Assembly (NCBI GenBank): GCA_035546615.1 | Contig: DASZWM010000004.1 | Coordinates: forward strand, 1-11,143 | Source of the DNA: Minisyncoccota bacterium | GTDB lineage: Bacteria > Patescibacteriota > Minisyncoccia > Phycocordibacterales > SBAW01 | Direction: 5' to 3' | DNA: 11,143 nucleotides | In this document: one piece after another, positions 1-11,143 of the stretch | Position numbering within the stretch: the stretch's first letter is position 1 | How the letters are laid out: every line of letters begins with the position of its first letter | Notes under the pieces: generated by a model | Told to the model about the DNA's origin: nothing | The model's database searches: none | The model's input: only the letters and a program-made list of their open reading frames with translations | Made by a program: the position numbers and the translations under genes

Positions 1-188
<188 letters not shown>

Positions 189-405
189 CCTTTACAGAGG
201 GAGAGAATCCTTGGGAATCGCAATAATCTGTTGTTCTTTCTTTACCTGGCAGCGCGCTTCGTTGTCGAACTGCGCTTCAAAACGCTCGCCGTACTCAAGT
301 ACGTCTCGCGCCCTGAAGCTTGTTCTCCTAGAATCGCATCTGCCATGAAAAGAAATCTTGTTTTACCTGCGTTTGTGAGTTTCGTTGAGGAGGAGAAAGA
401 AAAAA

Positions 406-730: not shown

Positions 731-847
731 TCTTGGTGGCTCAACGGTGGGGTCACACCCGTTCTCATTCCGAACACGGAAGTTAAGCCTACTAGTGGCG
801 ATGGTAGTCAGGGTCACACCTGGCGAGAGTAGCTAGCCGCCGGGACA
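731..847 (+). rRNA. rrf: 5S rRNA
   Basis: The ~117-nt element contains the 5S loop motifs CCGTTCTCATTCCGAACACGGAAGTTAAGC, GCGATGGTAGT and GGCGAGAGTAG. Terminal helix I is formed by CTTGGTGGC pairing with GCCGCCGGG. Confidence 0.85.
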
Positions 848-873: not shown

Positions 874-894
874 CGCGCCGTGTGCGCGTTTTTT
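874..894 (+). terminator. Rho-independent terminator candidate after 5S
   Basis: A GC-only 5-bp stem, CGCGC (874-878) pairing with GCGCG (884-888), encloses a 5-nt loop and is followed by TTTTTT (889-894). Confidence 0.45.
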
Positions 895-915
895 CGTATG
901 CGATACAATATATAG

Positions 916-1668
916 ATGGCACTCTCCTGGAGCGATCGCAGAAAGACTCTTTACTACGCGGTCGCGGGCGTTATCGCCCTCCTTGTATTAGGAACCGTGT
1001 GGCGTGTCTTTTTCGTCCATACGCCGACCTGTTTTGATGGCGTGCGGAACGGGCTCGAGCTCGGCATCGACTGCGGCGGCGCGTGCAGCCTTATTTGCAC
1101 CGACCAGGCAAAGGCGCCTACGGTCTTGTGGGCACGCAGCTTCGAGATAGCGTCAAGCACCTACACCGCAGCCGCATACATACAAAACCCCAACAGCGGC
1201 GCCGGCGCGCGGGCGGCGCGATACTCCTTCCAGCTTTTTGATGACAAGAACATCCTCGTCGTCGCGAAGGACGGCGTGGTGGATCTCCCGCCGGTGCGTA
1301 CTATCCCTATCATTGAGGCAGGCATCGACGTGGGCCACCGCACGGTGGCACGCACACTCTTTTCTTTCTCCGCGCTTCCAGCCTGGGATACGGTCACTGC
1401 CCCCATTCCCGTACTTCATCTGACCCAGCAGAACCTGAGCCAGGACGCCTCGCGGCTTTCGGCGAACGTGGTCAACGACTCCGCGCAGGATGCAGAGCGT
1501 GTCGTAATCGCGGTGGTGCTGTTTGACGGGTCGGGCGTCGCACGCGCGGCGTCCAAGACCACTATTGCCTCGCTTCCGCGCAAGGCGTCCAAACCCATCG
1601 TCTTTACCTGGCCCGGCGGAGTACCGGGCATCGTACGCGCCGAGATGACGATATTGCCCGCATTCTAA
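916..1668 (+). CDS. Hypothetical membrane-anchored protein (250 aa) with one N-terminal TM helix, then a CX13CX3CX3C cluster and an extracytoplasmic domain
   Basis: Long ORF with GC-rich codon usage matching its neighbours. A hydrophobic segment spans residues 13-34. It ends 9 nt before the SEDS gene. No family was recognised by eye, and no SXXK motif is present, so it is not a bPBP. Confidence 0.6.
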   Translation: MALSWSDRRKTLYYAVAGVIALLVLGTVWRVFFVHTPTCFDGVRNGLELGIDCGGACSLICTDQAKAPTVLWARSFEIASSTYTAAAYIQNPNSGAGARAARYSFQLFDDKNILVVAKDGVVDLPPVRTIPIIEAGIDVGHRTVARTLFSFSALPAWDTVTAPIPVLHLTQQNLSQDASRLSANVVNDSAQDAERVVIAVVLFDGSGVARAASKTTIASLPRKASKPIVFTWPGGVPGIVRAEMTILPAF

Positions 1669-1677
1669 GCTCCCGCC

Positions 1678-2817
1678 ATGGCTGAAAAGATAATCAAGGG
1701 CGCGATAGACTGGCCTTCCTTCGGCGCGGCGCTCGCGCTGTCGCTCTTGGGACTCGTCACGATGAGCTCGTTCACCGGAGACGACCCGTTCTTCGTAAAG
1801 CAGGCGATATTGATTTGCGTCGGTGTCGCGGCATTCTTTGTGGCGAGCCTGGTGGATTGGCGCATACTCCGGCGCAGCGGGGTGGCGGCCGGCATCTACG
1901 GCGCCGTGCTCGTGCCGCTCATCATTCTTATAGTCTTAGGCCATGCTACGCAGGGCGCCAAGAGCTGGTTTGACCTCGGACCCTTCGCGTTCCAGCCGGT
2001 GGAGTTCGTGAAGCTCGCGCTCATCATCACGCTCGCCAAATACTTCTCCCGCCGGCATACCGAGATCCGCCAGATACGCCATATCCTTATTTCCGGCGCA
2101 TACGCGGCGATCGTCTTCGTGCTCGTGGCGCTCCAGCCGGACTTCGGCTCCGCCATTATCATCTTTGCCATCTGGCTGAGCCTGGTGCTTCTTTCGGGCA
2201 TCTCAAAATGGCATCTCATCGGCGTGTTCCTGATAGGGCTCACCGCGTTCGGCGGCCTATGGCTTTTCGGCTTCCAGCCGTACCAGAAAGAGCGCATTCT
2301 CACGTTTCTCCACCCGCTTGCCGACATCCACGGCGCCGGCTACAACGCGTACCAGTCGACTGTCGCGGTCGGCTCGGGCGAGTTCTTGGGCAAGGGGATA
2401 GGGTACGGCACGCAGAGCAAGCTCCGATTCCTGCCGGAGTATCAGACCGACTTTATCTTCGCCGCATTCGCCGAGGAGTGGGGGTTCGTCGGCATCATTA
2501 TAGTCTTCTCGCTCTACGGCGTGCTGTTCTGGCGCATCGCATCCATAGCTGCCCGCGGCGCCACCAACTTCGAGACGCTCTTCGCGTTCGGCGTACTGTT
2601 CTACTTCCTCGCGCATTTCACCATACATGTCGGCATCAATATCGGATTGCTTCCCGTGACCGGCACGACGATTCCCTTTATGAGCTACGGCGGCTCGCAT
2701 CTCATCGTGGAGTTCGGCGCGCTCGGCATGCTCTCGGCCATGAAAAAGTATTCGCGCGCGGCGCCGCGGGAGGCGTTCGATCGCGAATTCAGCGGCGGCT
2801 ACGACGCGTTGCGCTAG
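1678..2817 (+). CDS. SEDS-family peptidoglycan glycosyltransferase (FtsW/RodA), 379 aa
   Basis: About 10 TM segments. SEDS hallmark blocks are present: ...QSTVAVGSGEFLGKGIGYGTQSKLRFLPEYQTDFIFAAFAEEWGF... and ...PVTGTTIPFMSYGGSHL... The sequence alone does not distinguish FtsW from RodA. Confidence 0.85.
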   Translation: MAEKIIKGAIDWPSFGAALALSLLGLVTMSSFTGDDPFFVKQAILICVGVAAFFVASLVDWRILRRSGVAAGIYGAVLVPLIILIVLGHATQGAKSWFDLGPFAFQPVEFVKLALIITLAKYFSRRHTEIRQIRHILISGAYAAIVFVLVALQPDFGSAIIIFAIWLSLVLLSGISKWHLIGVFLIGLTAFGGLWLFGFQPYQKERILTFLHPLADIHGAGYNAYQSTVAVGSGEFLGKGIGYGTQSKLRFLPEYQTDFIFAAFAEEWGFVGIIIVFSLYGVLFWRIASIAARGATNFETLFAFGVLFYFLAHFTIHVGINIGLLPVTGTTIPFMSYGGSHLIVEFGALGMLSAMKKYSRAAPREAFDREFSGGYDALR

Positions 2818-2822
2818 GCCGG

Positions 2823-3800
2823 CTATATACGGTACAGGGCAACGGTTTTTTCGAGCATCTGATCAAACGAGAACGTTTCCGGATCTTTGCTGTCGAGTAT
2901 TTCCCCGATGCCGCCCACGCGGTTGGCAACGATAGGAAGGCCGGCCGCTTTCGCTTCCAGCAGTACGTAGGGCAGGCCTTCCTTTATGGAAGGCAGAGCG
3001 AACGTGTCGAATCCGCGCAGTACTTCGCTTGCCGGCATGAAGCCGAACAGTTTTACCCGCTCCTCCAGCTTTGATTTCCGTATTTTCTCCTCAAGTTCTC
3101 CGCGCAGCTCGCCTTCGCCGACTATCGCTACGTACATATCAGTATGCTTTGCCGCCCGCTCGATAAGCGCGATCTGGTTTTTGTTTTTCGTCAGCTCGCC
3201 TATGGTGCCGGTGATCTTGGCGCCGGCAGGGAATGCCGTGCGGATCTTTTCTCCGGAACCCAGGTCTATCGGCTTGATGCCGTTGTAGATACGAACGACC
3301 TTGTGGCCGACGAGCGGCATCTTTCGCGCTACGCGCAGGTCGTAGTCGGATATGACGATGACATGGTGGGCCAACAGCGCGGTCGCCCAGGAAGCGAACC
3401 ATATCGCTGCGCGAGCAGCCCTGCTGCGCTTCTCCCAGAACGGCCAGCCATGCGCAGTGAAGATAATATTCGGCACGCCCGCCACTCGCGCGGCGAGGCT
3501 GCCGAGTCCGCCAACTTTCGAGCTGTTGAGATGCACGACATCCGGCTTCAACGTTTTGAACAGTCGGACTAATCCGCGAAAACTTCTGAAGTCCGCGCCG
3601 AAAGATACGTCGCGCTGGAGCGAGGAAATGTCGTGCGTTTTGACATCCGCCTTTTCGAGCATCTCGGCAAGCCTTCCTCGAGCGCCGAACGCGACTGTGA
3701 CATCAAATTCTTCCTTGGGTAGCGAGGTTGCAAGGTCGTACACATACCGCTGCGCTCCTCCAAAGTTGGCCTTAGTTATGACAAAAAGGATTTTCTTCAT
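2823..3800 (-). CDS. Glycosyltransferase family 4 (GT-B fold), 325 aa
   Basis: The N-terminal MKKILFVITKANFGGAQRYVYDLA is typical of the GT4 N-domain. The C-terminal EGLPYVLLEAKAAGLPIVA is the E-X7-E / nucleotide-sugar binding motif of retaining GT4 enzymes. The gene is convergent with the SEDS gene, 5 bp apart. Confidence 0.8.
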   Translation of the reverse strand: MKKILFVITKANFGGAQRYVYDLATSLPKEEFDVTVAFGARGRLAEMLEKADVKTHDISSLQRDVSFGADFRSFRGLVRLFKTLKPDVVHLNSSKVGGLGSLAARVAGVPNIIFTAHGWPFWEKRSRAARAAIWFASWATALLAHHVIVISDYDLRVARKMPLVGHKVVRIYNGIKPIDLGSGEKIRTAFPAGAKITGTIGELTKNKNQIALIERAAKHTDMYVAIVGEGELRGELEEKIRKSKLEERVKLFGFMPASEVLRGFDTFALPSIKEGLPYVLLEAKAAGLPIVANRVGGIGEILDSKDPETFSFDQMLEKTVALYRI

Positions 3801-3815
3801 GCAAATAGATGTAAC

Positions 3816-3848
3816 TTGAATATCTCAATACTTGTTGTACTATAGTAT
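3816..3848. promoter_or_regulatory. Divergent promoter region: perfect 10-bp palindrome TACTATAGTA (3838-3847) gives a TATAGT -10 hexamer on both strands; candidate -35 TTGAAT (3816-3821) for the + strand
   Basis: TATAGT at 3841-3846 lies 10 nt upstream of ATG 3857. The same hexamer reads on the - strand (complement of 3839-3844) toward the GT4 start at 3800. The -35 spacing is 19 nt, which is suboptimal. Confidence 0.3.
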
Positions 3849-3856
3849 CACCGTAT

Positions 3857-5212
3857 ATGGCAACCGCCTTTCGCCCCCGGACGCTCGTACTTTTCCTGGG
3901 GGACATACTCTTCTTCGCTTTCGCCCTTTGGCTTTCGCTCTATCTGCGCGCCTTCAGCGTCCCGGACCGCGACCTCTTCCTGTCCCACTTGCAGCCCTTC
4001 CTGCTTCTCTTTGCGGCGTGGGCAATCGTCTTCTTCATAGCGGGACTCTATGAGAGCCGCTCCATAATCCTCGCGCGCCGCGCGCTTTCGATGACGCTCC
4101 TGGTGGCGCAGACGTTCAATATAATCCTCGCGGCGCTCTTCTTTTTTGTCCTGCCGCTTTCTATTTTCGGCATTGCCCCCAAGGTCCTGCTTGCCATTTA
4201 TCTCCCGGTTTCTTTTGCGCTGGTGCTGGTGTGGCGCGTTGCTTTGTATCCCTGGCTTGGCTTCCAGAAGCCCGAGCAGGCGATAGCGGTTGGTTCGCGC
4301 CCGGAAGTGGCCGAGCTGGTGCATGCGCTCGACAATGCGCCGAATGCGCCAACCCGCGTGGCGGTGCATCTGGATCCTGCGAGCCCATCCGTCGTCGAGG
4401 ATATCAAGGTCGCTATTGCGCAATACAGGGCGAAGTTCGTCATCGCCGACTTCAACGACCCGCGCGTGGCTGCCGCATTCCCCGATATGTATAACTTCCT
4501 TTCGGTAGGCATCCGTTTCTTCGACGCGATGATGCTGTACGAGGAGGTGTTCGGCCGCATTCCGCTTTCCATCATCGACGAGCGCTGGCTTGCGCGGAAT
4601 GTCTCGCGCTACTCCAAGACCTGGTACGACCCGCTCAAGCGGTTTATGGATATACTCATCGGAGTGGCGGGAGGGATCATCTCGCTAGTGTTCTATCCTT
4701 TTATCATCCTCGCCATTAAGCTTGATGACGGAGGACCTCTATTTGTCTCTTTGCCGCGTATCGGTCAGGGCGGCAAAGTTATTCATATCCACAAATTTCG
4801 CAGCATGACCGGCAATGACGCGGGCGATTATGGAGCGGGTGGAACTACTAAGCTGGCCGTTACGCAGGTAGGCAAGATTCTTCGAAAAACCAGTCTCGAT
4901 GAGATACCGCAATTTTTAAATGTCCTTTTCGGGGAGCTTTCCCTTATCGGGCCTCGTCCGGAATCGCCTTCGCTCGTGGAGTTGTACGGCAAAGAGATAC
5001 CCTATTATCAAGCCCGTCATTTAATAAAGCCGGGCATTTCCGGATGGGCGCAGATCTATCAAGCCAACGATCCGCACCACGGCGCGGAAGTAGAAGCGAC
5101 GCGCGAGAAGCTTTCGTACGACCTCTACTACCTCAAGCACCGCTCGCTCATGCTGGATCTGGTTATCGCGCTCAAGACGGTAAAGAAACTTCTTATACGT
5201 AGCGGGATATAA
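3857..5212 (+). CDS. Polyprenyl-phosphate sugar phosphotransferase (WbaP/CpsE/WcaJ 'bacterial sugar transferase' family), 451 aa
   Basis: An N-terminal multi-TM region is followed by a C-terminal catalytic domain. That domain carries the family hallmarks KRFMDILIG..., [27 protein letters not shown] and [10 protein letters not shown]. Confidence 0.85.
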
Positions 5213-5220
5213 TCAGTCGC

Positions 5221-5943
5221 ATGATAGTAGATGGGAAAAAAATAGCCGAGGAGATTTTGGCTGATATCGGCGATTCTTTGCGCGGGCGTAAGCTCGGCAT
5301 TGTTATGGGCTCTTCCGACCCTGCGACGGAGTCTTTCATACGTATCAAATCGAAAGTGGCCGCGCGCCTTGGCGTGAAAGTCGTACACGGCGAATTTTCG
5401 AAACTCCTTACATCCTGCGACGGCATTATCGTGCAGCTGCCAATAGCAAACTCCGACGAATTGCTCGCTCAGCTTCCGGCTGACAAAGATGTCGACGCGC
5501 TCGGGCACGCGCCGAGCGTATTGCCCCCCGTGGCCGGAGCCGTTGCCGAAGTGCTCATGCGCCAGGGCGTGGACGTTGTGGGTAAAAAGATCGTCGTAGT
5601 GGGCGCCGGCAGGCTGGTCGGAAGACCGGCAGCTGAAATGCTCAAAGAAATGGGCGGGGAAGTCACAGTCGTTACGACAAACAGCGGCTCGCTTGAAGAA
5701 CTTAAGACTGCCGATGTTGTAGTGCTTGGGGCGGGGGATCCGGGCTTTATAAAGCCGGAGATGCTCAAGCAGGGAGTCGTTCTTATAGATGCAGGCACCA
5801 GCGAGTCGTCCGGCAAGCTCGCGGGCGATGCTGATCCTGCATGCGCTGATATCGCTTCTATATTTACACCTGTCCCAGGCGGTATAGGACCCATCGCCGT
5901 CGCGATGATATTCAAAAATCTGCTTGCCTTAGTGCAGAAGTAG
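5221..5943 (+). CDS. folD: Bifunctional 5,10-methylene-tetrahydrofolate dehydrogenase/cyclohydrolase FolD (compact 240-aa form)
   Basis: MIVDGKKIAEEI matches the FolD N-terminus. The SFIRIKSKV block carries the conserved catalytic Lys. QLP...DKDVDA, the VVGAGRLVGRP Rossmann segment and the C-terminal TPVPGGIGPIAVAMIF are also present. Confidence 0.8.
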   Translation: MIVDGKKIAEEILADIGDSLRGRKLGIVMGSSDPATESFIRIKSKVAARLGVKVVHGEFSKLLTSCDGIIVQLPIANSDELLAQLPADKDVDALGHAPSVLPPVAGAVAEVLMRQGVDVVGKKIVVVGAGRLVGRPAAEMLKEMGGEVTVVTTNSGSLEELKTADVVVLGAGDPGFIKPEMLKQGVVLIDAGTSESSGKLAGDADPACADIASIFTPVPGGIGPIAVAMIFKNLLALVQK

Positions 5944-5950
5944 AAGGTTA

Positions 5951-5980
5951 AATTCTGGACTTCGTAAGTCCAGAATTTTT
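5951..5980 (+). terminator. Rho-independent terminator after folD
   Basis: Perfect 12-bp stem, AATTCTGGACTT (5951-5962) pairing with AAGTCCAGAATT (5966-5977), with a 3-nt loop and running into TTTTT (5976-5980). The stop codon is at 5941-5943. Confidence 0.7.
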
Positions 5981-6026
5981 CCCGTGAAGCGTTGTTAAAA
6001 GGGCTTTTCTCTGCTATTCTCACCGC

Positions 6027-6092
6027 TATAATCTAGCGAAGCGAGCCAAATGAGAGTCCCTTTCATTTGGTCGCGAGCGACGATTATATAAT
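6027..6092 (+). promoter_or_regulatory. secDF upstream region: two consensus TATAAT hexamers (6027-6032 and 6087-6092) flanking a bulged 12-bp hairpin (6041-6074)
   Basis: TATAAT 6087-6092 lies 10 nt before ATG 6103 with no SD between, consistent with a leaderless or short-leader mRNA. TATAAT 6027-6032 would start a transcript roughly at the base of the hairpin: GCGA(G)CCAAATGA, a 9-nt loop, then TCATTTGGTCGC. No convincing -35 for either. Confidence 0.3.
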
Positions 6093-6102
6093 CTTAAATT
6101 CT

Positions 6103-7449
6103 ATGTTTGCTTTGCGCTATAGCGCCGTGGTCATCCTTATTATCGCGGGGGCATTGGGCTACTTCGTGTGGCACACCACCGGCGGGGGCGGCCGGTTCGA
6201 CTTCAAGCTGGGGCTCGACCTCTCCGGGGGTACCCACCTGGTCTACTCTGCCGACACCAGCACTATTGCGGCCGCGGATATTCCTGATGCTCTCATTGCG
6301 CTTCGCGAGGTTGTTGAGCGCCGCGTTAACGCCTTTGGCGTCGGCGAACCGGTCGTCCAGACCGAGCAGGGAGGCGCACTCGGAAGCGGCGAACACCGCC
6401 TGGTGGTGGAGCTCCCTGGCATAACTGATGTCGATGCCGCAGTGAAGATGATAGGCGCCACGCCGCTTCTTGAATTCAAGCTCGTGAAGGACGGATTTGC
6501 GGACAACCTCACGATTACTTCGACTACGTCGCCGGAGCAGACCATACCGAACCCTGCCGCGTTTACCGACACCGGCCTGACGGGCAAGTACCTTTCGCGC
6601 GCAACGCTCGAGTTCAACAAAGGAACCGGCAGCGTGGGGCTGACCCAGCCGGTCGTGCGCGTGGACTTTAACTCCGAGGGCACGAAGCTCTTCGGCGATA
6701 TCACGAGCGCCAATGTCGGCAAGCAGATAGCGATATTCCTCGACGGCACGATGGTGTCGGCGCCTACGGTTCAGGAAAAGATAACCGACGGCACAGCGAT
6801 AATTTCCGGCAACTTCTCCGCCGACTCCGCCAAGGAGCTCGTGCGCAACCTTAACTTGGGCGCCCTTCCGGTACCCATTACGCTTGCAAGTACGCAGTCT
6901 ATCGGCGCTATCCTCGGCGACGAGGCCGTACATGCGGGAATTCTCGCGGGCGTAGTCGGTTTCGTGGCGCTGTCGCTCTTCATGCTCTTCTGGTACCGCG
7001 TGCCGGGATTCGTTGCGGTCGTCTCGCTAACCATTTACGTCATCCTGATGCTGGTGCTCTTTAAGCTCATTCCGGTCGTGCTGACCGCCGCCGGCATCGC
7101 GGGCTTCATACTGTCCGTCGGCCTTGCCGTGGACGCCAACGTGCTTATTGCCGAGCGCATCAAGGAGGAGCTTGCCGCGGGCAAGAAGCTCGACCACGCC
7201 ATCCGCGAGGGCTTCGCGCGCGCCTGGCTCGCCATCCGCGACTCCAACATCGCGCACATCATCGCAGGCGTCATCCTGTTCTGGTTCGGCACGGCGCTCA
7301 TCAAGGGCTTCGCGCTGGTGTTCGGGCTCGGCGTCGTCGTGTCCATGTTCTCGGCTATCACCATCTCCCGCACGTTCCTGCTGGCGCTCGGCATCAATAC
7401 CGACAAGAAACTCGGCCACTTCCTGATGCGCTCCGGCCTTCGCAAGTAA
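6103..7449 (+). CDS. secD: Protein translocase subunit SecD (448 aa)
   Basis: N-terminal TM anchor, then GLDLSGGTHLVY. The large periplasmic domain is followed by a C-terminal 6-TM bundle (...IAERIKEELAAGKKLDHAIREGFARAWLAIRDSNIAHIIAGVILFWFG...). The start was chosen at ATG 6103; an in-frame TTG at 6067 would add 12 aa. Confidence 0.9.
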   Translation: MFALRYSAVVILIIAGALGYFVWHTTGGGGRFDFKLGLDLSGGTHLVYSADTSTIAAADIPDALIALREVVERRVNAFGVGEPVVQTEQGGALGSGEHRLVVELPGITDVDAAVKMIGATPLLEFKLVKDGFADNLTITSTTSPEQTIPNPAAFTDTGLTGKYLSRATLEFNKGTGSVGLTQPVVRVDFNSEGTKLFGDITSANVGKQIAIFLDGTMVSAPTVQEKITDGTAIISGNFSADSAKELVRNLNLGALPVPITLASTQSIGAILGDEAVHAGILAGVVGFVALSLFMLFWYRVPGFVAVVSLTIYVILMLVLFKLIPVVLTAAGIAGFILSVGLAVDANVLIAERIKEELAAGKKLDHAIREGFARAWLAIRDSNIAHIIAGVILFWFGTALIKGFALVFGLGVVVSMFSAITISRTFLLALGINTDKKLGHFLMRSGLRK

Positions 7450-7465
7450 CTTGAGATCTGATTTT

Positions 7466-8365
7466 ATGAACATCGCAAAATACGAAAAATATTTCTTCAT
7501 CCTTCCGGCAGTTCTGTCGCTTCTGGCCGTTATCGCGCTCGGCATGTGGGGGCTCAAGCCCGGCATTGATTTGGCCGGCGGCTCGCTGCTTCAGGTGACC
7601 TACGCGGCAGAGCGCCCTACGAGCGAAGCCGTGCACGCGGCGGTAGACGGCTTGGGCATTGGAGAAGTGCACGTACAGCCTACGGGCACCAATGGCTACA
7701 TCCTCCGCCAGCGCGACTTGACCCAAGACGAGAAGAATACGCTTGAGAACGCGCTCAAGAACCTCGGCGCCAACAAGGAAGACCAGTTCACCTCTATAGG
7801 CCCGTCGCTGGGCTCCGAGCTGGTACGCAAGGCATGGATAGCGATCACGCTTGTGGTGCTGTGCATCATCGCGTTCATCGCGTTCGCGTTCCGCGGCGTC
7901 TCCAAGCCCGTCGCGTCCTGGAAGTACGGCATCGTGGCGATCATTACGCTGCTTCACGACATCCTTATTCCGTTGGGCCTCTTTGCGGCTCTCGGTCACT
8001 TTATGGGGGCGGAGGTGGACGCGCTCTTTATCGTGGCGCTCCTGACCATCTTGGGTATTTCCATCAACGACACTATCGTGGTCTTTGACCGCATCCGCGA
8101 GAACCTGCGCCTTAACGAAGAGCGCCACAAGCGCGAGGCGTTCGACGAGGTCGTGGGCCGCTCTATCATGCAGACCCTAGCGCGCTCCATTAACACTAGC
8201 CTCACCGTCGTCATTACGCTCGCGGCACTGTACTTCCTCGGCCCGGCGTCGACGAAAATGTTCGCACTCACCCTTATCGTCGGTATGATAGCGGGAACCT
8301 ACTCTTCGATATTCCTCGCGTCCCCGCTGTTGGTAGTCTGGGAGCGTTTTCAGAAAAAGGGTTAA
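7466..8365 (+). CDS. secF: Protein translocase subunit SecF (299 aa)
   Basis: Sits immediately downstream of secD. Signature blocks GIDLAGGSLLQV, ...INDTIVVFDRIRENL... and a C-terminal TM bundle. The start was chosen at ATG 7466; a TTG at 7451 is an alternative. Confidence 0.9.
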   Translation: MNIAKYEKYFFILPAVLSLLAVIALGMWGLKPGIDLAGGSLLQVTYAAERPTSEAVHAAVDGLGIGEVHVQPTGTNGYILRQRDLTQDEKNTLENALKNLGANKEDQFTSIGPSLGSELVRKAWIAITLVVLCIIAFIAFAFRGVSKPVASWKYGIVAIITLLHDILIPLGLFAALGHFMGAEVDALFIVALLTILGISINDTIVVFDRIRENLRLNEERHKREAFDEVVGRSIMQTLARSINTSLTVVITLAALYFLGPASTKMFALTLIVGMIAGTYSSIFLASPLLVVWERFQKKG

Positions 8366-8374
8366 TATAAAGGC

Positions 8375-8785
8375 ATGAAGACCGTCCTTATCGCTATCGC
8401 TGTTGTCGTAGTAGGGGGCGCGGCATGGTGGTTCCTGGCCAAGGAAACCGCTTCCGCACCGACGGTTGCTCGCGCGCCCGAAGTCTCTTGGCAGTATGCT
8501 GATAAGGGCGGAGATGAAACCGGCACGCCGCAGACCGAAGTGAGCGTTACGATCTCGGGCAAGACGAGCCTGGTCGGCACCTACCAGGGCAGATGTGCCA
8601 GTGTTTCGACCTTGGCCGATGGGGAAGTCTCAGGCACCTTGTGCTGGTGGGCGGGCGGCGGCAAGGAACTCGGCGTATTTAACGAGAACGGAAAGTGGGT
8701 GGTCAAAGAAGGCGACCAGGACGAGGGAAGCGGCGATGAGCCCGGCTTCCGCGGCAATTTCAAAACGCTTTTTGAGATCAAATAA
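8375..8785 (+). CDS. Hypothetical small protein (136 aa) with an N-terminal signal-anchor TM helix and a Gly/acidic-rich soluble domain holding 2 Cys
   Basis: ORF starting 10 nt after the secF stop, with a weak AAAGG upstream. Its stop overlaps the start of the next gene (TAATG), indicating translational coupling. No family recognised. Confidence 0.55.
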   Translation: MKTVLIAIAVVVVGGAAWWFLAKETASAPTVARAPEVSWQYADKGGDETGTPQTEVSVTISGKTSLVGTYQGRCASVSTLADGEVSGTLCWWAGGGKELGVFNENGKWVVKEGDQDEGSGDEPGFRGNFKTLFEIK

Positions 8786-9333
8786 TGATAATCGGGATTA
8801 CGGGTTCTTTTGGGGCGGGGAAGGGAGTTGTTGTTGACTATCTCAGCAAGACCAGGGGATTTAAGCACTACTCCGCAAGCGGTTTTATAAAAGAAGAGAT
8901 CGTACGTCGCGGTCTGCCTGTGGATCGCGACTCCATGATACTTATTGGTAATGCCATACGTGCGGAATATGGCCCAGCCTACATCATTGAGACGTTATAC
9001 AAGCGCGCAGAAGAAGCTGGCGGAGACGCGGTCATTGAGGCGTTGCGCGCGGTTGCGGAAGCAAAAAAGATCAAAGAGCTTGGTGGACTGGTTATCGGAG
9101 TAGATGCGGATTCCAAATTGCGCTATGAACGCGCTTTCGCGCGCAAAAGCGAAAAAGATAATGTTCCGTATGACAAGTGGCTTGAGCAGGAAAGAATAGA
9201 AAATAATGCCACTGACCCGACGAGGCAGAATATCTCCGGTGCCTTGAAAGAATCCGACGTAATCGTAACCAACAACGGCACGCCGGAGGAGCTTTTTGCC
9301 CAGGTAGAGGAGGCTTTGCAGAAAATCAAATAA
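8785..9333 (+). CDS. P-loop nucleotide/nucleoside kinase, NMP-kinase / dephospho-CoA-kinase-like fold (182 aa)
   Basis: N-terminal Walker A GITGSFGAGKG. An H-Y-S-A-S-G segment resembles the adenylate/cytidylate kinase HxS(T)GD block. RYERAFAR is lid-like. The C-terminal DVIVTNNGTPEELFAQVEE closely resembles the CoaE C-terminus (DDVIDNNG...). The exact substrate cannot be assigned. Confidence 0.6.
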   Translation: MIIGITGSFGAGKGVVVDYLSKTRGFKHYSASGFIKEEIVRRGLPVDRDSMILIGNAIRAEYGPAYIIETLYKRAEEAGGDAVIEALRAVAEAKKIKELGGLVIGVDADSKLRYERAFARKSEKDNVPYDKWLEQERIENNATDPTRQNISGALKESDVIVTNNGTPEELFAQVEEALQKIK

Positions 9334-9930
9334 ATGGACTGGCATCAGGTTACAGCTTTGATAACGGGCGTTTTGACCCTTGCTGCGGTGGTGCCATACG
9401 TGCGCGATATGCTTCGCGGAACGACGCGGCCCAACCTGGTTACCTGGGGGCTTTGGCTTATTATCCAGACTATTTTTATTTTGGCGCAGTTTAGCGCCGG
9501 CGCCTCGTGGTCGGTACTGCTGCCGCTTATGGAAATGCTCACGGTCGGAATCGTGTTCGTCCTCGGCTTGTTCGGCTATGGGTATAAAAAGTATCGCAAG
9601 CTCGATATTACATGCCTTGGCATCGCGCTTGCGGCCATCGCCCTTTGGCAGCTTACAAGCGAACCACTCGTGGCGCTTTTCATGGCCCTGGGGGCGGACC
9701 TAGTTGCCGGAATCCCTACTCTCAAAAAGGCATATCTCGACCCGATGTCCGAAACGCCGTCAGCTTATTTTCTGGTGTTTATTTCGGCTATTTTCGGAGG
9801 GCTTTCCAGCGCGATTATCGACCTTCCTAACCTCATGTGGCCGGTCTATATCTGCGCTTTCAACGGAGGGGTTTTGGCCCTTATTTTGCTTGGCCGGAGG
9901 GCTCAAAAAGGCCATATTTCCAGGGCTTGA
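9334..9930 (+). CDS. Polytopic membrane protein (198 aa, ~7 TM) with an internal 3+1+3 repeat; PQ-loop / SWEET / Pnu-like topology (hypothetical transporter)
   Basis: ATG lies 1 nt after the kinase stop. Seven hydrophobic segments. The two halves align: AAVVPYVRDMLRGTTRPNLVTWGLWLII with VAGIPTLKKAYLDPMSETPSAYFLVFIS, giving a repeated P-x-x-[RK]-x-x-L-x-x-x-[ST] after the first helix of each repeat. The family assignment is inference. Confidence 0.55.
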   Translation: MDWHQVTALITGVLTLAAVVPYVRDMLRGTTRPNLVTWGLWLIIQTIFILAQFSAGASWSVLLPLMEMLTVGIVFVLGLFGYGYKKYRKLDITCLGIALAAIALWQLTSEPLVALFMALGADLVAGIPTLKKAYLDPMSETPSAYFLVFISAIFGGLSSAIIDLPNLMWPVYICAFNGGVLALILLGRRAQKGHISRA

Positions 9931-9954
9931 CTCCCTAGGGCAGGGGTATATACT
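9927..9954 (+). promoter_or_regulatory. Sigma70-type promoter candidate for the 16S rRNA gene (TTGACT-N16-TATACT)
   Basis: -35 TTGACT 9927-9932 overlaps the TGA stop of the upstream CDS. -10 TATACT is at 9949-9954 with a 16-nt spacer. The predicted start is ~330 nt upstream of the mature 16S 5' end, a normal rRNA leader length. Confidence 0.5.
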
Positions 9955-10063: not shown

Positions 10064-10290
10064 GTAATTGAACGTTAGAGGAGGATCACACCGATCTTCT
10101 GCATCTGAGTACAAGGATGCAGGAGGTCAGCAAGCAAAAGAAGTCCTTCCAATATAATTCCACTGGGAGGCAAACAAGGGAGAAGCCCTGTCCTTATTTA
10201 ATTGAAAAATTGAACTGGATAGAAATATTTTTTCTCTTGTTCCGTTCATCGAGTCAAAGGAACGAATGTAAAAGTTCGTCTCTTATAATT

Positions 10291-11143
<853 letters not shown>

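Follow-up and report, generated by a model that had tools for sequence, protein, structure and literature searches.

We analyzed how translation is initiated in a stretch of DNA of 11,143 nucleotides (nt), hereafter the window, in which 10 protein-coding genes, among them folD, secD and secF, are located between the 5S and 16S rRNA genes. The window appears to originate from an Adlerbacteria-like member of the Paceibacteria in the Candidate Phyla Radiation (CPR), and the homologues of its SecD protein are annotated as Candidatus Paceibacterota, Adlerbacteria or Parcubacteria. By an exact protein match it corresponds to an entire NCBI contig of a 'Candidatus Paceibacterota bacterium' metagenome-assembled genome; an attempt to extend it gave only a 4.8-kb Logan contig. 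Most probably, this Paceibacteria lineage lacks the anti-Shine-Dalgarno (anti-SD) sequence and initiates translation independently of Shine-Dalgarno (SD) sequences, on leaderless mRNAs transcribed from extended -10 promoters that abut the start codon. The evidence consists of the sequence architecture upstream of start codons, its position specificity and conservation, and the absence of both SD and anti-SD sequences.

In the mechanism we propose the 16S rRNA of the lineage would have lost its CCUCC anti-SD tail. A large share of the transcription units would carry the promoter TGnTA(T/C)A(A/C)T, mostly with a weak or absent -35 box, and its hexamer would occupy positions -12 to -7 or -13 to -8 relative to the start codon. 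As RNA polymerase normally initiates 7-8 nt beyond the last base of the hexamer, the transcript would begin at the AUG or 1 nt before it. Such a leaderless mRNA would be decoded by the ribosome and the initiator tRNA binding directly to the 5'-terminal AUG, a step that we infer by analogy with Actinobacteria, Deinococcus and E. coli.

An initial annotation of the window had drawn attention to five -10-like hexamers upstream of start codons and proposed that initiation in the organism is largely leaderless or SD-independent. This is supported by our results, at the level of the lineage as well as for the sites at 904 and 8363 and, less surely, for the site at 5208.

The -10 hexamer upstream of start codons in related loci

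The scan for -10 hexamers that the initial annotation had proposed was run on 80 SecD-centred loci from GTDB species representatives (approximately 1.07 Mb). Open reading frames (ORFs) were called longest-first and non-overlapping with the first ATG as start, which gave 872 genes. The offset of a hexamer is the position of its first base relative to the A of the ATG. A sharp enrichment was found at -12/-13: 13.2% of the genes had TANNNT at -12 and 8.4% had it at -13, compared to a background of approximately 3% (positions -45 to -21). In the 23 closest loci TANNNT was found at -12 in 17% vs. 1.8%. The form TA[CT]NNT, which cannot be a stop codon, was enriched 5.0-fold at -12 (P = 2e-26) and 3.4-fold at -13, and the signal is therefore not an artefact of in-frame stop codons. 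The peak was kept when each of the 384 gene families was represented by one gene (12.2% at -12 vs. 3.1% background, P = 3e-15), and it is therefore not an artefact of synteny.

The extended form TGnTAnnnT was enriched 17.8-fold at -12 and 10.2-fold at -13. It was absent at -11 and closer to the ATG, tailed off at -14/-15 and was at background level from -16 outward. When a hexamer was present at -12/-13, T was found at -15 with a frequency of 0.51-0.57 and G at -14 with a frequency of 0.53-0.55. A TG one base upstream accompanied 40-50% of the hexamers at -12/-13, compared to 10% of hexamers elsewhere. The -10 box of the 16S rRNA promoter, TATACT, agrees with the consensus of the hexamers, TA(T/C)A(A/C)T. 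The association was specific to ATG codons at the 5' ends of ORFs, where a hexamer at -12/-13 preceded 21.8% of first ATG, 7% of first GTG and 3.3% of first TTG codons, compared to 3-5% of internal codons; such a restriction is expected if leaderless translation requires a 5'-AUG. The starts with a hexamer in the window are all ATG. A hairpin followed by a T-run ended at most 40 nt from the ATG in 23 of 102 genes with a hexamer, compared to 22 of 313 genes without one (P = 6e-5, odds ratio 3.85). These units of terminator, hexamer and ATG are so compact that a promoter can fit only between the first and the last of them.

These data also bear on the possibility that the hexamer acts at the level of RNA, as a non-SD ribosome-binding or enhancer element (e.g., a U/A-rich bS1 site) in leadered or polycistronic mRNAs. 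Such an element would resemble the non-SD motif of the Bacteroidota ('group B'). It would account for the -12 peak at genes with a gap of less than 10 nt, where the TG is weak and a promoter for each cistron seems extravagant, and leadered genes such as that of the GT4 glycosyltransferase need some other recruitment signal when there is no anti-SD. However, the TG upstream of the hexamer is a hallmark of promoter DNA, where the TG of an extended -10 is contacted by sigma region 3, and the offset equals the distance from -10 to transcription start site (TSS) exactly, with zero occurrences at -11. The terminators directly upstream mean that the hexamer is often not transcribed, its consensus is the same as the -10 of the rRNA promoter, and the conserved leadered genes (GT4, secF) are without the motif. 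We consider an RNA-level element unlikely.

The frequency of the hexamer at -12/-13 differed with the distance to the upstream gene, from 24% where the gap was 40 nt or more to 14% where it was less than 10 nt. For genes with the upstream neighbor less than 10 nt away the -12 peak was still present (10% vs. 1-3%). Stop-anchored hexamers were marginally enriched among genes with a gap of 9 nt (10 of 14 vs. 43% elsewhere, P = 0.03). Same-strand gaps across the data set clustered at -8, -4, -1, and 0-5 nt. In the window the start of the kinase gene overlaps the preceding stop codon (TAATG), and the start of the seven-transmembrane (7-TM) protein gene directly follows the stop codon of its predecessor (TAAATG). 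Termination-reinitiation at tight junctions is an established form of translational coupling. Cistrons with stop/start overlaps or gaps of 0-5 nt (the kinase at 8785, the 7-TM protein at 9334, and secF in relatives) are most likely translated in this way.

A pyrimidine at position -1 was also considered as a signature of the TSS. T preceded 48-63% of start ATGs (pyrimidine 74-84%) vs. 32% of internal ATGs, and the excess of T was strongest for genes with short gaps. This candidate was rejected, since T and C were equally frequent at starts without a hexamer.

Anti-SD and SD sequences

Complete 16S rRNA genes were found in 11 of the related loci, i.e., L082, L002, L067 and eight other Paceibacteria, and none of their 3' tails contained CCUCC. 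L082 belongs to the same genus as the window (84-92% DNA identity), and L002 and L067 are the closest GTDB representatives. Inspection of the 16S 3' end, which had been suggested along with the -10 scan, was therefore in agreement with SD-independent initiation in the closest relatives. The 16S tails of the relatives read GGAAUGAUUCAAAUUG (closest relatives) or GGAUUAAUUCCAAU, replacing GGAUCACCUCCUUA, and others read AAUUCCAAU. In the Rfam alignment of the L002 16S rRNA the sequence AUUCA stands opposite CCUCC, with a posterior probability of '*' throughout. Loss of the anti-SD was previously reported for a subgroup of the Parcubacteria (Tsurumaki et al., 2022, RNA 28:1041; PMC9297842). In that study CCUCCU was detected in only 48% of the Parcubacteria 16S genes, and SD helices were inferred not to form.

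In agreement with the initial annotation, none of the 10 protein-coding starts of the window was found to have an SD-like motif at a usable distance. Across the 872 genes SD-like 4-mers were present upstream of 90 starts (10%) compared to 61 (7%) at control positions, i.e., SD-like motifs upstream of starts are at background level. Canonical SD k-mers were not enriched in the close set, and few distant loci (e.g., L065) showed any. Pairing of an alternative SD with the new 16S tail (reverse complement TCAATTTGAATCATTCC) was rejected, as the corresponding 4-, 5-, and 6-mers had no positional enrichment upstream of starts. Since neither SD sequences nor complements of the new tail were enriched, there is no sign of a compensating 'new SD'.

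The spacer between the 23S and 5S rRNA genes of the window contains an ORF at 385-648 (ATG 406) with a GAGGAGGAG tract upstream. The initial annotation had regarded this tract as a strong SD, but it cannot act as one if the 16S rRNA of the organism is without an anti-SD like that of its relatives. The GC content at third codon positions (GC3) of the ORF is 0.51, lower than in most of the window's genes. No homologue other than the ORF itself was found among 5.8 billion proteins, and there was no counterpart in the L082 spacer or the other loci. The ORF is probably spurious or very young.

Candidate promoters and gene order of the window

All five hexamers of the initial annotation were found in the sequence, and one further hexamer, TAAGCT at -12 from the start of the SEDS gene, had been overlooked. 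They are listed here together with the other elements of candidate promoters; coordinates are those of the whole window.

904-909, plus strand: TACAAT, -10 box at -12 from ATG 916; predicted TSS at the A of the ATG (leaderless); best-supported site
1666-1671, plus strand: TAAGCT at -12 from SEDS start 1678, formed on the stop codon of the preceding gene; candidate internal promoter, weak
3816-3821, plus strand: TTGAAT, -35 of the sugar-transferase promoter, with a 16-nt spacer to TACTAT; aaCTTGA(g/a)(a/t)AT is conserved in relatives and L082
3838-3843, plus strand: TACTAT, -10 box conserved for the sugar-transferase gene (ATG 3857), predicting a TSS near 3850 and a leader of approximately 7 nt
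3841-3846, plus strand: TATAGT, hexamer of the initial annotation, at -16; overlaps TACTAT and is itself unconserved
3839-3844, minus strand: TATAGT, -10 box of the divergently oriented GT4 gene (start 3800), predicting a TSS near 3832 and a leader of approximately 32 nt without SD
5208-5213, plus strand: TATAAT at -13 from folD ATG 5221, overlapping the upstream TAA 5210-5212; candidate internal promoter, leaderless or 1-nt leader
5951-5980, plus strand: terminator-like hairpin after folD, AATTCTGGACTT-cgta-AAGTCCAGAATT followed by a T-run; read from the sequence, unlisted by a simple terminator scan
5992-6020, plus strand: intact ancestral secD promoter, TTGTTA 5992-5997, 17-nt spacer, TGc TATTCT 6012-6020
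6030-6100, plus strand: imperfect palindromic insertion of 71 nt, similar to a miniature inverted-repeat transposable element (MITE), flanked by the direct repeat CTAT (6026-6029 and 6101-6104)
6087-6092, plus strand: TATAAT, secD hexamer of the initial annotation (-16), in the 3' arm of the insertion; without TG and without a counterpart in relatives
8363-8368, plus strand: TAATAT at -12 from ATG 8375, on the secF stop TAA 8363-8365; candidate stop-embedded internal promoter
9927-9954, plus strand: canonical sigma-70 promoter TTGACT/16/TATACT upstream of 16S rRNA, 10 of 12 consensus matches; conserved in L082

The 16S rRNA promoter shows that the RNA polymerase of the organism reads ordinary -35 and -10 boxes. 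A simple -35/-10 consensus scan of the window recovered none of the five hexamers because they are without a -35. The distance between hexamer and start codon, described as short and fixed, was found to be short but not fixed, with offsets of -12, -16, -13, -16, and -12 for the sites at 904, 3841, 5208, 6087, and 8363. Likewise, a TSS at or within 4 nt of the ATG agrees with the enriched offsets at 904, 5208, and 8363, but the predicted leader of the sugar-transferase gene is approximately 7 nt and that of secD is possibly approximately 75 nt. The GC content of the window was measured to 0.56 and not the approximately 60% assumed earlier.

TANNNT was found at -12/-13 for 2.7% and at -16 to -12 for 5.3% of 300 ATG triplets on both strands of the window. 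For the 10 real starts a count of at least 3 at -12/-13 has a binomial P of approximately 0.002; the actual count is 4 including TAAGCT at the SEDS start, and the true tail probability is smaller than 0.002. TANNNT at -16 to -12 was found for 5 of the 10 starts (P approximately 9e-5). The hexamers could nevertheless be due to chance, given AT-rich intergenic DNA in a GC-rich genome and stop codons starting with TA. The hexamers at 1666 and 8363 are built on stop codons and the one at 5208 overlaps a stop codon; enrichment of the stop-anchored class is only marginal, as described above, and hexamers at -16 are at background. Set against this are the confinement of the enrichment to one or two offsets, its survival of both the exclusion of TAA/TAG-type hexamers and the reduction to families, the conservation of hexamers across orthologues while the flanks drift, and the within-window binomial P of at most 0.002. 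As a general explanation chance is highly improbable; it is largely refuted for the -12/-13 class and possible for the individual sites 1666 and 5208.

The site at 904 follows the terminator of the 5S rRNA (874-894) and consists of TACAAT, a 6-nt spacer and ATG. The same terminator followed by TAC(A/G)AT, a mostly 6-nt unconserved spacer and ATG was found in approximately 12 relatives and in L082, several of them with TGn. The spacer between hexamer and ATG was 7-9 nt in L041, L009, and L026. In the family of the gene at 916 (hyp916) a hexamer was present at -14 to -12 in 22 of 29 members. The site is strongly supported, and 904-909 with ATG 916 has the layout of a textbook leaderless unit. 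Both for hyp916 and for secD the hexamer and its distance to the ATG were conserved, and the sequence of the 6-7 nt spacer varied freely.

For the site at 8363, TAAAAT or TAATAT was found at -12/-13 after the secF stop codon in L002, L004, L005, L010, and L082, and the G at -14 was kept. The gene following the secF stop varies between relatives, being the kinase in most or the homologue of the small hypothetical gene at 8375 (hyp8375). The site is a good candidate for an internal promoter of a leaderless downstream gene. The hexamer at 1666 was not found conserved in L002 or L041.

The folD site at 5208 is plausible but unproven. In L082 folD follows a terminator of its own, then TGcTATAGT, six bases and GTG, which, if real, would be a leaderless GUG start. 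In the L082 region 8500-8880 the sugar-transferase gene and folD are separated by approximately 390 nt, which may contain a small ORF, and by a terminator.

The SecD start at ATG 6103 is supported by a nearly invariant N-terminus, MF(A/R)LRY, in all of 35 aligned homologues. Because of the hairpin after folD, secD is the first gene of its transcription unit. Its ancestral promoter aligns with TGnTAnnnT located 6-7 nt before the ATG in L082, L002, L041, L067, and approximately 15 more relatives; the secD genes of approximately 20 relatives carry TGnTAnnnT at -12/-13. Alignment with L082, L002, L041, and L067 gave a 75-nt gap in all four at AT|G of secD, at the position of the palindromic insertion, and the start codon of secD looks as if it was regenerated by duplication of the CTAT target. 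The insertion can form a hairpin of -27.9 kcal/mol (z = -4.5). It separates the ancestral promoter from ATG 6103. Transcription of secD in the window may start from the old promoter, which would give a structured leader of approximately 75 nt, or from the TATAAT of the insertion, with a leader of 4-6 nt. Among the fetched loci, copies of the insertion were limited to a 17-nt match in L005 (4389-4405), besides L001, which is the same sequence as the window from a Logan read-run assembly and carries the insertion. A separate motif, (T)GTCAAC(C/T)CCT, is conserved approximately 27-45 nt upstream of the secD -10 in L004, L005, L010, L011, L012, L016, L017, L067, and L079. It is too far away for a -35; it might bind a regulator or be what is left of an upstream element, and it was not evident in the window or L082.

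The conserved N-terminus of SecD also bears on whether the promoters are real but the true start codons lie further downstream, in which case the messages would have ordinary leaders and the starts would be mis-called. The first-ATG rule was used and CPR genomes are poorly annotated, which leaves room for such errors. Conservation does, however, begin at the called methionine of SecD, the tblastn alignments of hyp916, folD, and secD begin at residue 1, and mis-calling would not yield an association specific to ATG at exactly 12-13 nt. General mis-calling of starts is thus very improbable.

The promoters between the sugar-transferase and GT4 genes do not abut the start codons. In at least 10 relatives we found TTGTTGTAnTAT followed by 11-14 variable nt and ATG. 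The three bases after TAnTAT differ among relatives (gtt, agt, ata, att, tgt, or ggg). Upstream of the GT4 orthologues TA(T/C)A(G/C/A)T followed by ACAACAA is conserved; in the GT4 family a hexamer was found at -14 to -12 in only 3 of 29 members. The -10 boxes of both divergent promoters overlap almost base for base in the palindrome TACTATAGTA (3838-3847). This overlapping divergent layout, with ACAACAA after the minus-strand box, is conserved in many relatives. TCAAGTT upstream of GT4 was considered as a pairing site for the 16S tail and rejected, since the -35 of the sugar-transferase promoter (TTGAga on the opposite strand) accounts for it better. Since GT4 has a predicted leader of approximately 32 nt without SD, not every gene would be leaderless. 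The leadered minority without SD would comprise GT4 (approximately 32 nt), the sugar-transferase gene (approximately 7 nt) and possibly secD after the insertion.

A number of observations weigh against leaderless initiation from abutting extended -10 promoters. None of the five hexamers of the initial annotation has the full TG, with those at 904, 5208, and 8363 having only the G at -14, and two of the five (3841 and 6087) are located at -16, which is at background in the lineage-wide profile. The folD hexamer is unconserved among relatives, many of which have a TAATG stop/start overlap that suggests translational coupling. Hexamers of genes with gaps of less than 10 nt have a weak TG signature (15% at -12) and may not be promoters. 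The calling of starts by the first ATG is crude, the comparison loci are all SecD neighborhoods rather than whole genomes, and the 16S gene of the window itself is cut at position 860 by the contig end. For a second, independent neighborhood a metagenome scan with a Mur ligase from L067 gave only 6 loci. Finally, the TSS positions are predicted from promoter geometry alone, and the mode of ribosome recruitment is proposed by analogy with other bacteria. Altogether, the fit of the leaderless reading within the window is strong for the gene at 916, good for 8375, and plausible for 5221, and 1678 is possibly leaderless.

The genes and rRNA elements of the window are as follows.

1-191, plus strand: 23S rRNA, 3' end (Rfam)
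732-845, plus strand: 5S rRNA (Rfam)
874-894, plus strand: intrinsic terminator of the 5S rRNA, TTTTTT after a CGCGC-cgtgt-GCGCG hairpin (terminator scan)
916-1668, plus strand: membrane-anchored hypothetical protein hyp916, 250 amino acids, without Pfam match; first gene after the 23S-5S unit
1678-2817, plus strand: SEDS FtsW/RodA protein
3800-2823, minus strand: GT4 glycosyltransferase
3857-5212, plus strand: Bac_transf sugar transferase
5221-5943, plus strand: FolD, short
6103-7449, plus strand: SecD
7466-8365, plus strand: SecF
8375-8785, plus strand: small hypothetical protein hyp8375
8785-9333, plus strand: P-loop kinase
9334-9930, plus strand: 7-TM protein
10284-11143, plus strand: 16S rRNA, 5' 860 nt only (Rfam); the 3' tail lies beyond the contig end

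The rRNA genes are unlinked and have an unusual order on one strand, with 23S-5S followed by approximately 9.4 kb with the 10 protein-coding genes and then 16S. The same order was found in L082 (1-3556, 3923-4036, and 13832-15321), where a tRNA-Ile(GAT) gene follows the 16S gene at 15944-16017. The 16S gene is located downstream of secDF in more than 30 related Paceibacteria loci, and many contigs break inside the 16S gene. The 23S gene of L082 spans 3556 nt for model positions 150-2925, which implies roughly 780 nt of insertions; an Rfam match to the small RNA family Atu_C6/EcpR1 (RF02500, 97.8 bits) lies within it at 1188-1299. Many genes of L082 are split, probably by frameshift errors in the assembly.

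Comparison with known systems

In the searchable library no relevant paper was found that connects leaderless mRNAs with Parcubacteria, Patescibacteria or CPR. The leaderless mechanism is known from other bacteria, the lineage is new to it, and the published loss of the anti-SD is the closest prior observation. That loss (PMC9297842) is the same phenomenon in the same broad clade, and the 16S tails described here are concrete examples of it. The study is silent on what replaces the SD in the recruitment of mRNA and does not use the word 'leaderless'; a -10 at -12/-13 combined with tight stop-start coupling is a candidate answer. This would address how mRNAs are selected in Parcubacteria whose 16S rRNA is without an anti-SD, a question left by the literature on CPR ribosomes.

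A more far-reaching version, to which we give limited credence, is that leaderless mRNAs with extended -10 promoters and termination-reinitiation have wholly replaced SD-dependent initiation in the anti-SD-less Paceibacteria, with many operon-internal genes carrying mini-promoters built on stop codons (TAAnnT 12 nt before the ATG, as at 1666 and 8363). If so, a large part of the genome would be expressed from leaderless monocistronic mRNAs in a mitochondrion- or archaeon-like regime that co-evolved with ribosome reduction, and the secD insertion would be a natural experiment in which a leaderless gene was suddenly given a structured leader.

The results also have consequences for annotation, as gene finders that look for SD sequences will mis-call starts in metagenome-assembled genomes of this kind. 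The first-ATG rule has its own errors; in L002 it overshoots the conserved start that follows TACAAT. With a model that places a -10 at -12/-13, the calling of starts would become better throughout a very large clade that is uncultured.

The closest parallel is 'group C' of GeneMarkS-2, comprising Actinobacteria such as Mycobacterium tuberculosis and Streptomyces as well as Deinococcus-Thermus, where a Pribnow box is located 6-8 nt from the starts of genes that come first in operons and approximately 25-50% of the operons are leaderless, with mRNAs whose 5' end is the start codon (PMC6028130). The geometry is the same here, a hexamer at -12/-13 being present in 24% of the genes whose gap to the upstream gene is 40 nt or more. 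Group C has kept the anti-SD and uses SD sites for leadered and internal genes, whereas the relatives analyzed here are without an anti-SD and have SD motifs at background level. Unlike those of group C, the promoters of this lineage are predominantly of the extended -10 type (TGn).

As in the Bacteroidota ('group B'), SD motifs are absent upstream of starts, in their case genome-wide. The Bacteroidota do, however, keep the anti-SD, and their motif is located on leadered mRNAs and is thus not a promoter (PMC6028130), whereas in the relatives analyzed here the anti-SD is lost and the motif has the hallmarks of a promoter.

Mammalian mitochondria, which have no functional anti-SD, and many archaea ('group D'), which rely on leaderless mRNAs, initiate at a 5'-terminal AUG. 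The archaeal TATA box is found at approximately -26, and mitochondrial transcripts are processed polycistrons. The likeness to both is a functional analogy only and implies no evolutionary relationship. The pattern of ribosomal-protein loss in the CPR has been likened to that of mitoribosomes (PMC9297842). Altogether, our observations would extend heavy reliance on leaderless mRNAs beyond the Actinobacteria and Deinococcus-Thermus, to a lineage in which the SD pathway appears to be absent and not merely supplemented.

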